A DNA stretch of 64,000 nucleotides from an uncultured archaeon. GTDB taxonomy: Archaea; Asgardarchaeota; Thorarchaeia; Thorarchaeales; Thorarchaeaceae. The translations under genes and the position numbers were made by a program. The notes under the pieces were generated by a model, which was not told the origin of the DNA, ran no database searches, and saw only the letters and a list, made by a program, of their open reading frames with translations. Positions 47,044 through 58,430 of this stretch are shown piece after piece (position 1 is the stretch's first letter; every line of letters starts with the position of its first letter). The stretch is from positions 275 through 64,274 of the forward strand of contig CAZPWM010000004.1 of the NCBI GenBank assembly GCA_964590575.1, in the 5' to 3' direction.

Positions 47044-47301
47044 AGATAATCCCTCACGGCAGGTGTTAACCGGGTAATACCGAATATAAGTCGATACCAC
47101 GTTTCATTGGGTCGGCGCCAACGTCTCTGGATATGTTGAACGCGACTTTCACTCTAGGGCATTCGGCCCATAAAAGGCTAAATATGCTGAAACCATCTTC
47201 GAATAAGGAAACATACGGGTGGAAGCAAATTTGCATCCCCTATGTGATTCTCTATTACCGAGCAGAAAGGTGAGTACTTGAGTAGCGGTGGCTTTGACTA
47301 C

Positions 47302-47820
47302 ATGCGTAAGGTCGTCATGATTGGCGCAGGTGGCAGTGGAAAGACTGCCTTAGTCAACCGTTTTCTCACCCACAAGTTCTCTGAAGAATATATAGTAACA
47401 ATCGGATCACAATTTGCTGTCAAAACTGTAGAACTAGAAACTGCAAATGGTCGCAATGTGGTTGTGAAGCTTCTTGTGTGGGACCTAGCTGGTCAACAAC
47501 GGTTCGATTTTATTCGTGGAAGCTATTATCGCGGTTCCAAAGGTGCACTGCTTGTTTTTGACACGACGCGAAAGAGCACATGGTTGGAATTGCCAAAATG
47601 GATCAAGGAAACCGAAGATGCGCTAGGAGAGCGAATTCCTATTATTCTCCTTGCAAACAAGGTAGACCTAGCTGAACACAGAGTGATCACTCGTGAGATG
47701 GGCGAACAATTCGTTCGCGATAATAATCTCACAGGTTATCTTGAAACGAGTGCATTGTCAGGCCAGAACGTCGAAGAAGCATTCAGGGTGCTTGCCAAGA
47801 GTTCGATGGCAAATTCCTAA
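47302..47820 (+). CDS. Rab-like small GTPase (Ras superfamily)
   Basis: G1 GAGGSGKT, switch I T, G3 WDLAGQQRF, G4 NKVD, G5 ETSAL; no CAAX. Confidence 0.75.
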   Translation: MRKVVMIGAGGSGKTALVNRFLTHKFSEEYIVTIGSQFAVKTVELETANGRNVVVKLLVWDLAGQQRFDFIRGSYYRGSKGALLVFDTTRKSTWLELPKWIKETEDALGERIPIILLANKVDLAEHRVITREMGEQFVRDNNLTGYLETSALSGQNVEEAFRVLAKSSMANS

Positions 47821-54558: not shown

Positions 54559-55698
54559 ATGCCCGTCGCGATGTTACTCATAGATTGGGACTCAAAGATA
54601 GGCGCTGTCCTAAAGGCTAAGGTTCCTGCGGACTTTGCGGACTATTATAGGGAAGATCTCAATACAGAGATTATGCGTATCTTCACGTCACACGCAATGG
54701 GTGACGCAACCGCTGGATTCTCGTCATTGAGTGTTAGAATTGGAGGAGAAGAATATGGTGTAGCCTCCTACTACACAGGAGTTGTTAGAGAGGAGGAACA
54801 GTACTGTGTATCACTCTTACTAACACCCTCAGAGGATCCGAAGACTTACGAGGCTGCAATTACCTCCATAGTCACACCCCTCACTAACGCGGTCGTTGCC
54901 ATGACTGACGCTGAACTGCGGACTGAAATCGACAATACCTACCGTCGGATTATCAGACTTGCGGGAATGACTGACGAGTCACGTCTTGCGAGATTATTTT
55001 CAGATGAGGTTTCGCGAGCTGTGTTTCCGAAGCTCTGGAAAGGAGGCATTTCCAAGGAGGAGCTCGAGGAATGGCTCAAAATGGTCACAGGATTACCTAG
55101 TGTGAGTGTGGACTCCGTCATTGCACCATTTGAAGAATTAGGTCTTGTAAAGACTGAGTGGGTTGATGAGATTGGTCGAACCTGCGTCTTCATGATCAAA
55201 GACCTTGAAGTTTTCAGAGCACCACCACTCATAGCAATGGAGTCAGCTAGTAGTGTTTTAGACCCCGAGCTTGCTGCTGAATACAAGACTGAAGTTTTGG
55301 AGTTCCTAACTGAATGGCAAAAGACTCCTGAAGACACAGTTTCTGTTGCACAGGTATTGGCTGATCCCGACTGTTATGATACGCTTAGTGAGCTGAGAAG
55401 ACGACCCGTCAACATTTCAGAACTGGAAGCGACTCTTGCTATTCCCCCAAAGGAGTTGAAGTCTGCGATTCAGACTCTCAAGAAATTCCGAATTATATCT
55501 GAAAAGAGAAGAAAGGGCGCCTCTGGTGAGTATGACAAATGGTTATTCTTGCTTAACGATATACGCGTGAGACTGTTCTTCCCAGAGTATTTCCTTCAGA
55601 CACTTGTCACAGATCTTGAGAAAACTCCGGATGATCCAAAGCAGATGGAGATGGTCCATCATCACCTGCGTTTGCTACGGGACAACTTCCCACGATAA
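54559..55698 (+). CDS. Hypothetical protein with a longin/roadblock-like N-terminal fold, upstream of an Arf-like GTPase
   Basis: Alternating beta/alpha pattern AMLLIDWDSKIGAVLKAKVP...YCVSLLLTP; inference only. Confidence 0.35.
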   Translation: MPVAMLLIDWDSKIGAVLKAKVPADFADYYREDLNTEIMRIFTSHAMGDATAGFSSLSVRIGGEEYGVASYYTGVVREEEQYCVSLLLTPSEDPKTYEAAITSIVTPLTNAVVAMTDAELRTEIDNTYRRIIRLAGMTDESRLARLFSDEVSRAVFPKLWKGGISKEELEEWLKMVTGLPSVSVDSVIAPFEELGLVKTEWVDEIGRTCVFMIKDLEVFRAPPLIAMESASSVLDPELAAEYKTEVLEFLTEWQKTPEDTVSVAQVLADPDCYDTLSELRRRPVNISELEATLAIPPKELKSAIQTLKKFRIISEKRRKGASGEYDKWLFLLNDIRVRLFFPEYFLQTLVTDLEKTPDDPKQMEMVHHHLRLLRDNFPR

Positions 55699-55904
55699 GT
55701 GAAGTTACTTCCATGTGTGATTGAAATCATACGCATTTAGCGGAATTACAATTGGGATTTCTGGTTCTTTCGATTGCGATTCTTCAACCTGATTCAATCA
55801 ATCCGTGATAATTTCATTGAACTTGGCACAAGACGAGTTCCGTATAAACCTAGAAAGCTTCATATGGTATTTTACCTTCTCGCTTAGTGAATCTTCGTAA
55901 CAGG

Positions 55905-56200
55905 GTCGCATGGTTTCCCCCGTCAAGGAACTCGCGTGTTAACACGGTCCCAAAGTGAGTTCTGGTCCCTATTGCCTGTTACTAGGCAAATCTTGCGCAT
56001 GTAATTTTTAACCATGCATCCTGTTAGGAAGAGCTCCACGGATGCGGAAGGTTCGCCTTGGCGGACCAGCCGCTCCAACCTTATTCACGCTGAGGGCATT
56101 AATAGACACACGGAATATCAAAATATACACACAGAACATCTTAATCTACAACCAAAAAATAACTTGCAGACTAAGAGGCTTCAAAAAACCAGGCCTCTCG
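55905..56200 (+). ncRNA. Candidate structured RNA (unassigned) in a GC-rich segment upstream of, or overlapping, the annotated GTPase 5' end
   Basis: Long-range pairing GCATGGTT (55908-15) with AACCATGC (56010-17); local hairpins CGTGTTAACACG (55935-46), GCCTGTTACTAGGC, CGCCTTGGCG (56055-64), AGAGGC-(13)-GCCTCT (56174-98); the region is GC-rich against AT-rich flanks and its translation is Arg/Ser/Pro-rich. Confidence 0.25.
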
Positions 56201-56202
56201 GT

Positions 56203-58014
56203 TTGATTGAACCTGGTGATATCGAAGTGATTCACAACACCTTCCTTGTTCGCATATCCAACCGGCAAATAATTGCATCTACCCAGTATTGGCCAGTTGA
56301 GGTGAGAAACGAAGCACTGAATGAATTCATCTCCACAAGAGAGGATCTCAGAACAGAACATGGCCAGGTGTCAGAACTACCTCTGATTATTGGGGATCAC
56401 AAATTCCTAGGAAAAGACTGGATTGAGGATTCAGTTCTTGTTTTCGTTACCGACAAGGGTGAGGATGAAAGCAATACCTATGAAAAGATAGACTTGGCTT
56501 TGAAAGCTCTTAGAACGACTTTCAAAAAGAAAGGGATTGAAGGAGCAATCAAGAATTATAGCAATCTTATCGAACCTTCTATTACAACTAGACTCAAGAT
56601 TGCTCTGGTCGGAGAAGGTGGTGTTGGGAAAACAACTACCTTGCATCTCCTCTTAGGTGATACGCCACCTCTACAGTATGTTCCAACAATAGCGTTGAAT
56701 TTAGAAACAGTTGAGAACATTCGCTTTGGCAACTACTCTCTGGTTCTATGGGACTTTGCTGGACAGGAACGGTTTCGAACTTTGTGGCGGTTCTACTTCC
56801 ATGGTGCAGATGTTATTTTCCTCGTGTGTGACTCCACTTTAAGGAACGTCATCATAAGCAAAGATATTCTCAAACTAATCAAACGAGATGCACCAAAGGT
56901 GCCTATATTTGCATTAGCAAATAAGCAGGATAAACCAAATGCTATGAAACCTGAAGTTGTTCAGAAGATTCTAGGGATTCCTACATATTCTATGGTGGCT
57001 ATCGACAAAGACCGTCGCGACGAAATGTTACGTATTCTTATGACTGCAGCTGCGCAGTACGTTGGCGTGGCTCTCCCAGACCTTCCTGCCGCAGAGCTAC
57101 TGAAATTCACAGACGCAGCCACTAAAGAAGCAATTGCAGAAGCAGATGCCATAGAGGTTAAGGCAATCGAAGAGGAAGAGATCGAGGAAGAAGAAGAGAT
57201 TGAAGAAGAACTTGAGGATGAAGAGTACGAAGAAGTAATTGAAGAAATCTTTGTTGATGAAGAAGGTCACGTGATTGAAAATCTCGATGAGTATGAGATT
57301 GTTGAAGAAGATGCAGATGAATCCATAGCGGTACCTACTGCAGCGGATGAAGTTGAGATAGAGGTTGAATCTCCGGAAGCGTTTGATATCCCTACAGTGG
57401 ATGATGCAGAGATTATAGAAGAGGTAGAAATTGAAATAGAGTCAGAACCTGAGCCAATTGAAGAATTCATTGAAGATGTTGTAAAGGAACCTATTGAGGC
57501 TTTTGAGGCGATTGCAGAAGAAGGTCCTGTGATCGAAGTGGTTACTAAAGATGAGCCAGAATCTGAACCTGTTGGAGCAGAGACTGAGACAGCTGAAGCG
57601 ACATATTTCGATTCTGGACCTGTATTAATAATAGAAGAGAATACTGACGCAATGAAGATGGCTAAGGATATCATCTTTGAGGCTCTTGAAACAGATGATA
57701 TTGATGATATTATTGCAACTGAGATTGAACAAGCCTCTGACGAAGAGATAGATACTGCTCTTCAGGCGATTGGGAGCGACGAAACAATCCCACTTGAAAA
57801 TGAACTTGTAGAGACTGAAGAGATTGATGCTGAATCGCTAATCGAACTTGAAAAATTTCTAGGTCCCTTGGATCGGCCCATTGGTGGTACTGGAATTGTA
57901 AAAACAGATGAAGATGATGAAGAAAACGACTCTTATCTCCCACTCAACGGTGAAACCCTTGCTGAGCTTGACCGTCTGTTCGATGCAAGTCAGGAAGACG
58001 GCGATTCAGACTGA
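56203..58014 (+). CDS. Arf/Arl-like small GTPase with an N-terminal Roadblock-like domain and a roughly 330-aa acidic low-complexity tail
   Basis: G1 GEGGVGKTT, Arf-type WDFAGQERFRTLWRFYF, NKQD; the C-terminus is made of E/D/I-rich repeats; start uncertain (the TTG at 56203 is chosen, the track ATG at 56014 is probably non-coding). Confidence 0.6.
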   Translation: MIEPGDIEVIHNTFLVRISNRQIIASTQYWPVEVRNEALNEFISTREDLRTEHGQVSELPLIIGDHKFLGKDWIEDSVLVFVTDKGEDESNTYEKIDLALKALRTTFKKKGIEGAIKNYSNLIEPSITTRLKIALVGEGGVGKTTTLHLLLGDTPPLQYVPTIALNLETVENIRFGNYSLVLWDFAGQERFRTLWRFYFHGADVIFLVCDSTLRNVIISKDILKLIKRDAPKVPIFALANKQDKPNAMKPEVVQKILGIPTYSMVAIDKDRRDEMLRILMTAAAQYVGVALPDLPAAELLKFTDAATKEAIAEADAIEVKAIEEEEIEEEEEIEEELEDEEYEEVIEEIFVDEEGHVIENLDEYEIVEEDADESIAVPTAADEVEIEVESPEAFDIPTVDDAEIIEEVEIEIESEPEPIEEFIEDVVKEPIEAFEAIAEEGPVIEVVTKDEPESEPVGAETETAEATYFDSGPVLIIEENTDAMKMAKDIIFEALETDDIDDIIATEIEQASDEEIDTALQAIGSDETIPLENELVETEEIDAESLIELEKFLGPLDRPIGGTGIVKTDEDDEENDSYLPLNGETLAELDRLFDASQEDGDSD

Positions 58015-58037: not shown

Positions 58038-58430
58038 TTGCTAGTATGCTTCAACAAACCAGAGGAAAATTGCTTGAAATTATCTGAAGTTGAAGCAGGA
58101 AAGAATGTCATAGAATTGATTGTCCGCATTGTTTCCGTAGCACCGCCCAAGATGGTTAGCACTCGAGCAGGACGGAAGACCCAACTAACAGAAGTTCTTA
58201 TTGCTGACGAAACAGGATCCACTATTCTCTCACTATGGGGATTTGGGGAGGGTTCAGACCTTTCTGCAGGCAAAGTGATACGAATCGATGATGGCTGGGC
58301 AAAAGACTGGAGAGGGAAGGTTCAGCTCTCACTAGGCCGCTCCGGAAAATATGAGGTTCTTGTAGATGATGGGTCCGTTCCATCAATCACTGAAATTGGT
58401 GCAGCAACAGAATCTACTGGACCTGAGTAA
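58038..58430 (+). CDS. ssb: Single-OB-fold ssDNA-binding protein (SSB/RPA-like)
   Basis: IADETGSTILSLWG...GKVIRIDDGWAKDWRGKVQLSLG parallels the crenarchaeal SSB OB core. Confidence 0.65.
   Translation: MLVCFNKPEENCLKLSEVEAGKNVIELIVRIVSVAPPKMVSTRAGRKTQLTEVLIADETGSTILSLWGFGEGSDLSAGKVIRIDDGWAKDWRGKVQLSLGRSGKYEVLVDDGSVPSITEIGAATESTGPE

Follow-up and report, generated by a model that had tools for sequence, protein, structure and literature searches.

A thorarchaeal longin-Arf-like GTPase with a conserved acidic tail and its longin/winged-helix neighbor, a candidate GTPase-partner module

Introduction

Arf GTPases link the binding of GTP to that of membranes through an amphipathic helix at the N-terminus, in many cases with a myristoyl group on Gly2. 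Domains of the longin and Roadblock folds are found in other GTPase systems. Roadblock/LC7 domains, such as those of MglB, LAMTOR and the Rag C-terminus, have the order α-β-β-α-β-β-β with an N-terminal helix, and in the signal recognition particle (SRP) receptor the longin domain of SR-alpha lies N-terminal to its GTPase domain, in a receptor that also contains charged linker regions.

Within the Asgard archaea, some Arf proteins have extra N-terminal domains "such as longin" (Zhu et al. 2025, PMC11914678), and longin-GTPase fusions have been remarked on (Liu et al., bioRxiv 10.1101/2020.10.19.343400). The GTPase fusion at the locus studied here is less exceptional than a preliminary description had implied, since these two sources already report, in general terms, Arf-type GTPases of Asgard archaea with a longin domain fused at the N-terminus. 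The main text of PMC11914678 does not mention Thorarchaeota, and the searchable literature on Asgard Arf-type GTPases contains no ~300-aa polyacidic tail with islands, no phylum-wide, near-invariant G domain and no conserved neighbor. Among the regulators of Rag-type GTPases, Nprl2 carries a catalytic arginine finger, Arg78, in its longin domain and a "GP" motif in the β1-β2 loop (PMC12290439). Here, we describe a gene pair in a 64,000-nucleotide stretch of Thorarchaeaceae DNA (hereafter, the window) as a candidate archaeal version of these eukaryotic GTPase-regulator modules.

Results

The GTPase gene starts inside its longest open reading frame

The locus contains two ORFs on the + strand, 54559..55698 (379 aa) and 56014..58014 (666 aa, the longest ORF). 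The second of these begins too far upstream.

54559..55698, + strand: 379-aa longin and winged-helix protein, candidate partner
56014..56226, + strand: 71 codons wrongly added to the 5′ end of the GTPase ORF, non-coding, overlapping the RNA gene and a conserved non-coding element
56120..56148, + strand: conserved AT-rich element AAAATATACACACAGAACATCTTAATCTA (alignment A4, the three clades nearest the window)
56215..56219, + strand: Shine-Dalgarno-like GGTGA, 7-10 nt 5′ of the start codon and identical in all 25 aligned loci
56227..58014, + strand: longin-Arf-like GTPase with acidic tail, corrected coding sequence (595 aa; more than 100 ortholog clusters of ~500-680 aa)

As the invariant GGTGA is followed by a [G/T/A]TG-ATY start pattern (conserved at 56215-56229 across the 25 aligned loci), and as most called ortholog proteins begin with MIHNTF, the sequence evidence places the true start at GTG 56227-56229, not at ATG 56014, with a predicted product of 595 aa. 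The 71-codon extension is absent from all called orthologs of the GTPase, and this part of the long ORF (its codons 1-71) overlaps both the non-coding RNA gene described below and a promoter-like element. The AT-rich element is likely to be the promoter region of the GTPase gene. Residues 60-190, previously given for the N-terminal domain, were numbered from the over-long ORF. The GTPase gene noted earlier was confirmed by its ORF, by the motifs then quoted (WDFAGQERFRTLWRFYF and NKQD) and by the Pfam Arf match.

A nearly invariant Arf-like G domain follows a longin-fold domain

56227..56568, + strand: N-terminal longin-fold domain (AF2 and Foldseek; mean column identity 0.73)
56590..57069, + strand: Arf-like G domain (Pfam Arf, 2.2e-21; closest PDB relatives Arf1; mean column identity 0.98)

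Judged by its profile score, which is above the curated threshold (76.5 bits vs a cutoff of 22.3), and by its G1-G5 motifs, the GTPase belongs to the Arf family (Pfam PF00025); the Roc and Ras profiles gave 66.8 and 54.0 bits. The motifs comprise the P-loop GEGGVGKT, switch I PTIALNLETVE, WDFAGQ, LWRFYF and NKQDKPNAM, and all those that bind nucleotide are intact in sequence, including the catalytic Gln of DxxGQ and the T of PTIA. In a HMMER alignment, PTIALNLETVE, WDFAGQERFRTLWRFYF and NKQDKPNAM line up with the Arf1 motifs, and the nearest solved structures are those of eukaryotic Arf1 (E ~1e-19 to 1e-20). GQERFR is also Rab-like, so the domain has a mixed signature. It is nearly invariant (mean column identity 0.98 across 62 clusters) and was poorly modelled by AF2 (pLDDT 25-50). 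An Arf-type N-terminal amphipathic helix is absent, its place being taken by the ~113-residue longin domain, and there is no Gly2. We rejected two related identities: Rag/Gtr, given a Gtr1_RagA score of 19.4 bits (cutoff 22) and the reversed domain order, and SR-beta, given an SRPRB score of 17.8 bits (cutoff 25) and no N-terminal hydrophobic segment. The order first proposed for this protein, the reverse of Rag/Gtr, was thus borne out, with longin first and G domain second.

The N-terminal domain had been described as Roadblock-like. In the AF2 model it is ordered (pLDDT 76-88) as β-β-α-β-β-β-α, with no helix before β1, as in the longin fold. A Foldseek search of the PDB with this domain gave 29 matches at E<=1e-3, and the matches listed are longin domains of adaptors, coatomer and SNAREs or C-terminal roadblock domains of Gtr/Rag. 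The top matches were AP mu/sigma, COPI delta/zeta, Sec22b and VAMP7 (E 4e-5 to 1e-3); the roadblock domains of Gtr/Rag came lower in the ranking than the longin matches, and the bacterial Roadblock protein 3kye was placed only 42nd. The N-terminal pattern MIHNTFLVRISNRQIIASTQYW may resemble the start of sigma-adaptins. Neither the GTPase nor the 379-aa protein matched Pfam Longin or Clat_adaptor_s at E<=0.1. We therefore retain from the earlier description an ordered domain of the longin/Roadblock superfold fused to an Arf-like G domain, and assign it by topology and by the top-ranked structural matches to longin. A Roadblock/LC7 identity was rejected, given the missing N-terminal helix, the rank of 3kye and the lack of a Pfam Robl_LC7 match.

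The acidic tail is kept across Thorarchaeota and contains conserved islands

57070..57141, + strand: conserved post-G motif ALPDLPAAELLKFTDAATKEAIAE (column identity 0.94)
57142..57639, + strand: polyacidic region, with an E-rich predicted helix, then island 1, then a variable, indel-rich acidic linker
57241-57309, + strand: conserved island 1 EEIFVDEEGHVIENLDEYEIVEE (identity 0.82 vs 0.39-0.41 in its flanks)
57640..57774, + strand: conserved three-helix module NTDAMKMAKDIIFEALE...IDTALQAIG (identity 0.73; AF2 helices)
57823..57888, + strand: conserved island 3 IDAESLIELEKFLGPLDRPIGG (identity 0.85; predicted helix at model residues 534-544)
57937..57984, + strand: conserved C-terminal motif LP[LI][ND]xE[TS]LxEL[DS]RL[LF]D, then an acidic end (identity 0.74; nearly all orthologs)

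After residue 300, the GTPase continues for 294 aa with 113 D+E and 9 K+R (net charge -104). This tail peaks at 51 acidic residues per 100-aa window, and among the other ORFs of the analyzed stretch that reach 200 aa none goes above 25. Five conserved islands, including the C-terminal helix LPLNGETLAELDRLFD, lie within it, and column identity is 0.73-0.94 in the islands vs ~0.4 in the linker. The linker varies from 79 to 207 aa among orthologs while keeping its composition (D+E 0.28-0.48, K+R ~0.02). AF2 gave pLDDT <50 for model residues 360-471 in the acidic region, three helices in the module (residues 472-487, 491-501 and 504-514; pLDDT 67-76) and a helix at residues 574-588 for the C-terminal motif. 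Low complexity is confined to the beginning of the tail, where short GAA-rich repeats span 57169-57246. The tail is polyacidic, as first described, but not uniformly disordered, and its first description as disordered and repetitive holds only in part.

Every ortholog has the tail (>100 protein clusters), as do ~75 of the 79 loci from species-representative genomes, nearly all of which are thorarchaeal and a few of which are tail-less paralog loci. Because non-Thorarchaeota homologs and thorarchaeal paralogs end at ~280-311 aa, the tail is in these comparisons a Thorarchaeota-specific addition; the tail-less thorarchaeal paralogs retain the PDLPxEELLxF part of the post-G motif. It is extremely unlikely that errors of assembly, reading frame or gene calling produced the fusion or the tail. 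The 5′ end alone was mis-called, through the spurious extension from ATG 56014, but in more than 100 clusters, drawn from independent assemblies, and at ~75 species-representative loci the three-part protein runs in frame to the conserved C-terminal motif. Fusion and tail are both conserved, with no frameshift.

The upstream protein has the domain architecture of Npr2/Npr3

54559-54960, + strand: longin-fold domain of the 379-aa protein (~residues 1-134)
residues 135-262, + strand: helical middle with a probable first winged helix
55345-55578, + strand: ArsR-like winged helix (~residues 263-340), followed by a C-terminal helical hairpin

The predicted model of the 379-aa protein is of moderate confidence (mean pLDDT 59) and places a longin-fold domain at the N-terminus, in agreement with the longin/roadblock-like start noted earlier. 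With its longin and winged-helix domains, the protein has the architecture of Npr2/Npr3, and it is a member of an unannotated family found across Asgard lineages. Neither this protein nor 62 family members matched Pfam NPR2 or NPR3, and the family profile showed no similarity to human NPRL2 (hhalign probability 0.2%; the query sequence was confirmed against PDB 6ces_N). Likewise, sequence profiles showed no similarity of the GTPase longin domain to that of the partner family. In the thorarchaeal 379-aa proteins, G15-A16 in the β1-β2 loop is invariant, as is R77, which the model places in the β4-β5 loop, close to where Nprl2 has its Arg78 finger. Across the wider partner family, G15 and P23 are retained and position 77 is mostly a gap, so an arginine finger does not appear to be conserved family-wide.

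The ArsR-like winged helix raises a different reading, in which the protein is a DNA-binding, ArsR-type transcription factor with the longin domain as sensor. It would then either regulate the locus with no part for the GTPase or serve as the effector through which the GTPase switch reaches transcription. We consider this improbable. The ArsR-type matches fall far under the curated cutoffs (19 vs 55 bits), on which ground we also rejected the ArsR/SmtB repressor class. The protein as a whole is acidic (pI 4.85), its 82-97% identity across Thorarchaeota would be unusual for a specific transcription factor, and the tandem winged helices that follow the longin domain in Npr2/Npr3 are protein-protein modules (PMC3521125).

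The two genes are adjacent in Thorarchaeota and in two other lineages

In 72 of 82 thorarchaeal loci, the 379-aa gene is found upstream of the gene for the GTPase, and the other ten either lack the upstream flank or are paralog loci. This adjacency is weak evidence on its own, because divergent Thorarchaeota share the order of the whole block (Tmk, the 379-aa gene, the RNA, the GTPase, an SSB-like OB-fold gene, Nuc_deoxyrib_tr, EamA and RtcB). The spacer of 0.4-1.7 kb between the two genes, moreover, contains the RNA gene as well as separate promoter-like elements, which makes a single operon improbable in this phylum.

Outside Thorarchaeota, homologs of the two genes stand directly next to each other in at least two Asgard lineages. 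At locus L085, the longin-Arf GTPase (311 aa; 42% identity over both domains) comes first, and 13 nt separate its end from a partner homolog of 365 aa. At L087, the partner homolog (358 aa) comes first, and a longin-Arf GTPase of 282 aa (33% identity) follows after 14 nt. These two loci thus have opposite gene orders, and the GTPase is tail-less at both. Tight adjacency in two non-Thorarchaeota lineages, in either order, argues for a functional pair. Two of the seven partner-family loci outside Thorarchaeota have such a directly adjacent GTPase, and a third has an Arf-like gene at a distance of 4.6 kb; none is nearby in the remaining four. The preliminary description had not noted that the gene pair recurs beyond Thorarchaeota, that the neighbor is built like Npr2/3 or that an RNA gene separates the two.

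Alternatively, the GTPase may work independently of its neighbor, with a longin domain that homodimerises or binds other regulators, a tail that is a spacer, binds cations or basic proteins, or is autoinhibitory, and an adjacency that is frozen thorarchaeal gene order. The synteny of the whole block, the spacing and separate promoter-like elements, the four unpaired partner-family loci and the thorarchaeal GTPase paralogs that have no 379-aa neighbor are all consistent with this view. The tight pairs in two other lineages, with order reversed, are hard to explain by inherited synteny, and we regard independence as somewhat unlikely. From architecture, conservation and linkage together, we favor a GTPase-plus-partner module, with a probability of roughly 45%, in which longin docking would join the two proteins, the partner would be a regulator or effector and the tail would be a tether.

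A structured RNA gene lies between the two genes

55852..55867, + strand: promoter-like BRE/TATA element AGAAAGCTTCATATGG, ~30-45 nt 5′ of the RNA (alignments A2 and A4, divergent loci)
55900..56085, + strand: structured non-coding RNA gene of no assigned class, ~186 nt (covariance model R1, covariation and MFE)

In 69 Thorarchaeota loci, covariance model R1 found a single, full-length, + strand copy of the RNA per locus; paralog loci and non-Thorarchaeota loci, including the two with the gene pair, gave no match. A long-range helix closes the multi-branch core of the RNA, which is accompanied by a hairpin whose ACACGGUCCCA loop is invariant, another hairpin that is variable, a single-stranded U-rich segment and a hairpin on the 3′ side. 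Pairing is retained in 93.5% of cells, vs 35-55% in slid controls, with compensatory changes in 41 of 46 pairs and MFE z-scores of -2.9 and -4.1. The RNA has no match in Rfam 15 at E<=1 and is not a tRNA. From its likeness to the archaeal BRE/TATA consensus, the element upstream is a putative promoter.

The RNA could be a third component of the system, bound as a ribonucleoprotein by the winged-helix protein, the GTPase or both. Its position, exactly once between the two genes at 69 loci and with strong covariation, is compatible with such a role, as is the capacity of winged helices in general to bind RNA (the winged-helix domains of SelB are an example). However, the RNA is absent from both non-Thorarchaeota loci with the gene pair, and where the spacer contains insertions it stays beside the GTPase gene (L033) or beside the 379-aa gene (L036, L040 and L067). 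With its own promoter-like element it looks like an independent gene, and synteny alone can account for the co-location. This role is very improbable.

Discussion

In the GTPase-plus-partner module that we favor, the longin domain of the GTPase would be a built-in platform, in the role that the C-terminal roadblock domain has in Rag/Gtr. We infer that it may dock on the longin domain of the 379-aa protein, as in the pairs of longin or roadblock domains in Nprl2-Nprl3, FLCN-FNIP, Mon1-Ccz1 and Rag-Ragulator. The docked partner could then control the nucleotide state, as a GAP or GEF, or read that state through its winged helices as an effector. The acidic tail of the thorarchaeal proteins would serve as a long, flexible tether, whose islands and C-terminal amphipathic helix might recruit further partners; it might instead fold back on a basic surface, such as the C-terminal winged helix of the partner (pI 8.8).

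A broader proposal is that the locus preserves a pre-eukaryotic module with the logic of Rag-GATOR1, FLCN and SRX-SR-beta: an Arf-like switch with its own longin platform, an Npr2/3-like protein that docks as GAP, GEF or effector, a thorarchaeal tether and possibly the RNA. In that full form we judge it unlikely. If true, the locus would offer an experimentally tractable archaeal model for the pre-eukaryotic origin of small-GTPase regulation on longin platforms.

Among known systems, Rag/Gtr with GATOR1 (Nprl2-Nprl3) or FLCN-FNIP differs in having the reverse domain order and a Rag-like rather than an Arf-like G domain. The partner has no profile similarity to NPRL2 and apparently no arginine finger conserved across its family, which sets it apart from GATOR1, and no DEPDC5 or Ragulator counterpart was identified. 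The layout of the GTPase also resembles that of FtsZ, whose short conserved C-terminal helix docks partner proteins: both have a globular GTPase, a linker of variable length and constrained composition, and a short conserved C-terminal helix. This is an analogy only, as the GTPase folds are unrelated and the linker here is extremely acidic and has additional conserved modules.

The SRP receptor (SR-alpha SRX and SR-beta) likewise pairs a longin domain with an Arf-family GTPase, but on separate chains, whereas here one chain contains both and has neither the N-terminal membrane anchor nor the SRP-type NG domain. The small and medium subunits of adaptors and coatomer and the longin SNAREs, which are the best fold matches of the N-terminal domain, carry their longin domains within a coat or a SNARE, whereas here the longin domain is joined to a GTPase. 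An Arf-like G domain is the feature shared with Asgard Arf-type GTPases that have extra N-terminal domains (the AArf, ArfL and ArfR groups), and since the first ArfR matches were reported in Lokiarchaeales and Heimdallarchaeia (Vargova et al., bioRxiv 10.1101/2024.02.28.582541), membership of this GTPase in the ArfL group is plausible.

The GTPase gene begins inside its longest open reading frame

The window is archaeal: the only genomes with close relatives of both focal proteins were MAGs that bear the name Thorarchaeota or its newer phylum-level equivalent, "Promethearchaeota". The features that define the two genes are as follows.

54559-55698, + strand, gene for a 379-aa protein, the candidate partner of the GTPase
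56014-58014, + strand, listed open reading frame of 666 aa
56215-56219, + strand, Shine-Dalgarno-like element (GGTGA), from an alignment of 25 upstream regions
56227-56229, + strand, GTPase start codon GTG, from the same alignment
56227-58014, + strand, GTPase gene

Because most GTPase orthologs start with MIHNTF, and because the alignment of 25 upstream regions contained an invariant GGTGA 7-10 nt upstream of a [G/T/A]TG-ATY start, we conclude that the 666-aa gene model starting at 56014 is too long and that the GTPase comprises 595 aa. Residues are numbered below as in the AlphaFold2 (AF2) model and the GTPase ortholog alignment (A1), counting from Ile2, with residue n at nt 56230+3(n-1). 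The segment 56014-56226 (+ strand) is a spurious 71-codon N-terminal extension of the longest reading frame that begins inside an RNA gene, and short, non-conserved N-terminal extensions are also present in some database entries for GTPase orthologs.

The GTPase combines a predicted longin domain with an Arf-type G domain

The proposal that this protein contains an Arf-type G domain with an NKQD motif is borne out by profile and structure searches. Arf was the top Pfam match (residues ~121-260; 76.5 bits, cutoff 22.3), above Roc and Ras, and both Gtr1_RagA (19.4 bits) and SRPRB (17.8 bits) scored below the Pfam cutoff. The closest solved structures are eukaryotic Arf1 proteins (E ~1e-19 to 1e-20), whose motifs align with PTIALNLETVE, WDFAGQERFRTLWRFYF and NKQDKPNAM of the GTPase, and all nucleotide-binding motifs are intact, the catalytic Gln included. 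Constraint on the G domain is exceptional: the 62 ortholog clusters diverge overall by as much as 40%, and yet the mean column identity of this domain is 0.98.

AF2 predicted a beta-beta-alpha-beta-beta-beta-alpha order for the N-terminal ~113 residues (pLDDT 76-88). When this domain was compared with the PDB using Foldseek, we obtained 29 matches at E<=1e-3, among them mu and sigma of AP-1, AP-2 and AP-3, delta and zeta of COPI, Sec22b and VAMP7. Placed lower were two chains of 8fw5 (GATOR1-Gtr complex), D and E, which we take to be the roadblock domains of Gtr1 and Gtr2, and the first bacterial Roadblock/LC7 protein appeared only at rank 42. As longin-type matches came first, we assign this domain to the longins by its predicted fold; no Pfam longin profile gave a match to this region. 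The Roadblock-like label given to this domain earlier thus stands for the superfold, which the two have in common, and fails for Roadblock identity, as the Roadblock N-terminal helix is missing. In the AF2 model of the full GTPase the G domain was poor (pLDDT 25-50), probably due to its nearly invariant alignment, and so interdomain geometry, be it longin-G contacts or tail docking, is unreadable from this model.

A conserved acidic tail was added to an older longin-Arf core

Behind the G domain is a tail of about 295-315 residues that contains 113 D+E versus 9 K+R, an acidity far above anything else in the window. We found this tail in every GTPase ortholog examined (about 250-380 aa; D+E fraction 0.33-0.47), in none of which it was absent or frameshifted. 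Since its composition and motifs are conserved in orthologs, we conclude that the tail is real and not an artefact.

Segments of the GTPase tail and their column identity
Post-G motif, ALPDLPAxELLKFTDAAT.EAIAE, column identity 0.94
E-rich stretch, predicted single long helix, column identity 0.39
Island 1, EE[VI]xVDE[DE]GHVIEDLDEYEI[IV]EE, column identity 0.82
Acidic linker, indel-rich, 79-207 aa, K+R ~2%, column identity 0.41
Three-helix module, AF2 pLDDT 67-76, column identity 0.73
Island 3, IDAESLxELExxLGPLDRSVGG, column identity 0.85
C-terminal motif, predicted helical, LP[LI][ND]xE[TS]LxEL[DS]RL[LF]D, column identity 0.74

The tail had been described as acidic, disordered and repetitive. 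Its acidity is confirmed, and AF2 pLDDT values below 50 at residues 360-471 and in short spacers are consistent with disorder in those parts; the conserved islands and the three-helix module speak against a featureless tail. Long tandem repeats were ruled out, as the DNA contains only short GAA-rich codon repeats (57169-57246). The tail is under selection for both composition and specific motifs. MIM-like and YxxPhi-like interpretations of these motifs were set aside, the spacing seeming not to suit MIM1.

A scan of one genome per prokaryotic species identified 79 GTPase-family loci, nearly all titled Thorarchaeota. Some genomes also contain tail-less paralogs, such as a tandem pair of 306 and 296 aa in a Thorarchaeota genome (L074:2998-3918 and L074:4055-4945) in which both domains (longin and G) and the PDLPxEELLxF motif are retained and which has neither a 379-aa neighbour nor the RNA; paralogs of this kind also occur at L075, L077 and L078. 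Both domains are also covered by a 311-aa homolog in an Asgardarchaeia genome (locus L085; 42% identity) and a 282-aa homolog in another Asgard genome (locus L087; 33% identity). As these non-Thorarchaeota homologs lack the acidic tail, the ~300-aa longin-Arf core is the older unit and the tail a Thorarchaeota innovation. Small GTPases do not usually carry such an addition, an acidic tail with conserved motifs that is specific to one phylum.

The homolog at L085:4053-4988 carries a polybasic C-terminal stretch, KKKATFPPVNLPADAKRKYSMKVKNY, where the Thorarchaeota proteins carry their polyacidic tail, so that the C-terminal charge is opposite in the two.

The 379-aa protein resembles Npr2/Npr3 in architecture and fold

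The product of the upstream gene has 46 orthologs, essentially all of 379 aa and 82-97% identical, and across the phylum it is far more conserved than the GTPase longin domain. It belongs to no Pfam family, with ArsR-type matches at sub-threshold scores only. Its AF2 model is moderate (mean pLDDT 59) and predicts a beta-beta-alpha-beta-beta-beta-alpha-alpha order at residues 1-134, then helices, and a confident winged helix at residues ~270-337 (pLDDT 80-89). The full-length Foldseek alignment of this model to NPRL3 (8fw5_C) was weak (E 5e-3, probability 0.69); together with the predicted order of residues 1-134, it supports the earlier view of this neighbour as longin-like.

Npr2/Npr3 have been described as a longin domain with winged helices behind it (PMC3521125), an architecture that the 379-aa protein has in common with them. 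However, 0 of 62 family members matched Pfam NPR2 or NPR3, and hhalign found nothing between the family profile and human NPRL2, whose sequence we confirmed against PDB 6ces_N. We therefore dropped the claim of homology to Npr2/3 in favor of "same architecture and fold".

An exhaustive profile search was needed to recover relatives of this family, since a second word-seeded search, with the family alignment, gave the same 46 proteins. It returned 225 distant relatives, mostly 355-380 aa; those sampled belong to Asgardarchaeia, Hodarchaeota, Lokiarchaeota and Helarchaeota, nearly always under the name "hypothetical protein". They have in common MPxGhhhhxWDDRxGxxhxxxYP, a motif similar to that of the beta1-loop-beta2 segment in GAP and DENN longins (PMC12290439). 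Compared to non-Thorarchaeota members, the 379-aa protein has phylum-specific loop insertions at residues 27-34, 61-64, 76-78 and 113-115. Residue Arg77, close to where Nprl2 has its Arg78 finger, is invariant in Thorarchaeota; given that the loop holding it is deleted in most relatives, a conserved arginine-finger GAP for the whole family is not supported. Profile-profile comparison of the two longin regions (alignment A3 or A5 against A1) found nothing, and at the level of sequence the longin domains of the GTPase and the 379-aa protein have no recognisable relation.

Linkage outside Thorarchaeota argues for a functional pair

The 379-aa gene lies upstream of the GTPase gene on the same strand at 72 of 82 Thorarchaeota loci, the other 10 having no upstream flank or being paralog loci. 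As the whole Thorarchaeota neighbourhood is syntenic, linkage inside the phylum is by itself weak evidence, and adjacency elsewhere is the stronger evidence. In L085 the longin-Arf GTPase comes first, with 13 nt between its end and the partner homolog, and in L087 it is the partner homolog that comes first, with 14 nt between its end and the longin-Arf GTPase; the gene order is opposite in these two loci and both arrangements look operon-like. At four other non-Thorarchaeota partner-family loci we found no GTPase nearby, and at one further locus only an Arf-like gene 4.6 kb off. Because tight linkage recurs outside the phylum, a functional GTPase-partner pair is the best explanation, which we hold with moderate confidence given the other loci that have no adjacent GTPase.

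Several other genes lie near members of the pair.

47248-47817, + strand, second small GTPase reading frame, Rab/Ras-like (GAGGSGKT, DLAGQ, NKVD), ~9 kb upstream
58038-58430, + strand, SSB-like single OB-fold gene, 24 nt past the GTPase stop, position kept in other Thorarchaeota
L084:7094-7411 and L087:6961-7284, small proteins homologous to each other, ~105 aa, 26% identical (E 3e-12)

The OB-fold gene is NCBIfam PRK06461-like (77.7 bits, below cutoff) and may be co-transcribed with the GTPase; no OB-fold counterpart adjoins the non-Thorarchaeota modules. The small proteins are encoded directly 3' of the partner-family gene or the GTPase in two non-Thorarchaeota lineages. Each has a hydrophobic/basic N-terminal stretch (MGIWGRIKSWFG and MGLINKVVSFFKGLLGG, respectively), judged by eye to be a potential amphipathic helix, together with a charged segment that may be coiled coil. 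We rejected the OB-fold gene and these flanking genes as shared components, as the small proteins have no relation to the OB-fold protein and do not occur at Thorarchaeota loci.

A structured RNA lies between the two genes

The 0.5-kb spacer between the two genes contains a conserved element preceded by a candidate promoter-like sequence.

55852-55867, + strand, BRE/TATA-like element, by resemblance
55900-56085, + strand, structured RNA element of ~186 nt

Two divergent versions of this element fold independently to one architecture (z-scores -2.9 and -4.1). A covariance model built from ten close sequences detected the element at 69 Thorarchaeota loci, each time as exactly one full-length copy on the + strand, and found no copy in paralog or non-Thorarchaeota loci. 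In the 69-locus alignment, which was fitted to the covariance model and so favours the structure, paired cells reached 93.5% versus 35-55% with partners slid by 1-3 columns, and compensatory double changes occurred at 41 of 46 pairs (426 cells versus 48-78 in the slid controls), a margin that is still large. Frequent G-U pairs fit transcription from the + strand, and a T-rich stretch follows the element. Where extra spacer DNA is inserted, the RNA has remained beside the GTPase gene in some loci and beside the 379-aa gene in others, and it therefore looks like an independent gene.

Rfam 15 contained no match to the RNA in the window or in four divergent loci, and a tRNA scan indicated that it is not a tRNA. 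By eye, we saw none of the conserved defining motifs of RNase P RNA, SRP RNA, H/ACA, C/D or tRNA-like minihelix RNAs. Absent from Rfam, this RNA is a side discovery that warrants a separate study.

Immediately 5' of the 3' strand of the closing helix, the RNA has a single-stranded, U-rich tract (~56001-56013, AAUUUUUAA; other clades have GAAUUUUAC and GAUUUCUG) that bears a superficial resemblance to Sm/Lsm-binding sites. One sub-clade (L004:2653-2857, L007:1925-2125, L012:2653-2857 and L021:2138-2343) has an extra small hairpin, CAUGUUUCGAAAGAAACA, after a CCCCCGUC motif, and in other clades the variable hairpin holds larger insertions; clade-specific hairpin insertions are typical of structured RNAs.

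A proposed longin-based module and its relation to known systems

General statements on Asgard Arf-like GTPases with N-terminal longin domains, and on NPRL2-like proteins in Thorarchaeota, have been made previously (PMC11914678; 10.1101/2020.10.19.343400). In the literature searched, we found no description of the polyacidic GTPase tail with its conserved motifs, of recurrent pairing with the longin and winged-helix family, or of an RNA between the two genes, and public annotations offer only "ADP-ribosylation factor-like protein", "GTP-binding protein", "hypothetical protein" and "ArsR family regulator". The gene pair does not amount to a categorically new system, but it forms a well-defined and conserved module that is open to testing. 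Many longin proteins and GTPases are encoded in Asgard genomes, yet hardly any pairs of them have been defined. The pair singled out here is conserved throughout Thorarchaeota and, in two further Asgard lineages, is again tightly linked. The small size of both proteins should allow recombinant production, so that binding, GAP/GEF activity and the role of Arg77 are biochemically testable.

Longin and roadblock domains serve as dimerisation platforms for small GTPases and their regulators, as in Rag-Ragulator, Nprl2-Nprl3, FLCN-FNIP, Mon1-Ccz1 and SRX-SR-beta. By analogy, the GTPase longin domain would most plausibly dock on the longin domain of the partner, which could then set or read the nucleotide state of the GTPase, and the partner's winged helices would add protein contacts and possibly nucleic-acid contacts. 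The Thorarchaeota tail may act as a flexible polyanionic tether that presents conserved docking helices, comparable to the linker and C-terminal peptide of FtsZ-type proteins. The tail could also fold back onto a basic surface such as the C-terminal winged helix of the partner, which has a pI of 8.8.

In eukaryotes, membrane traffic and nutrient signalling depend centrally on GTPase-regulating platforms built from longin and roadblock domains, namely GATOR1, folliculin, Mon1-Ccz1, TRAPP, Ragulator and the SRP receptor. The origin of these platforms is debated, and the Thorarchaeota module is relevant to the origin of longin-based GTPase regulation.
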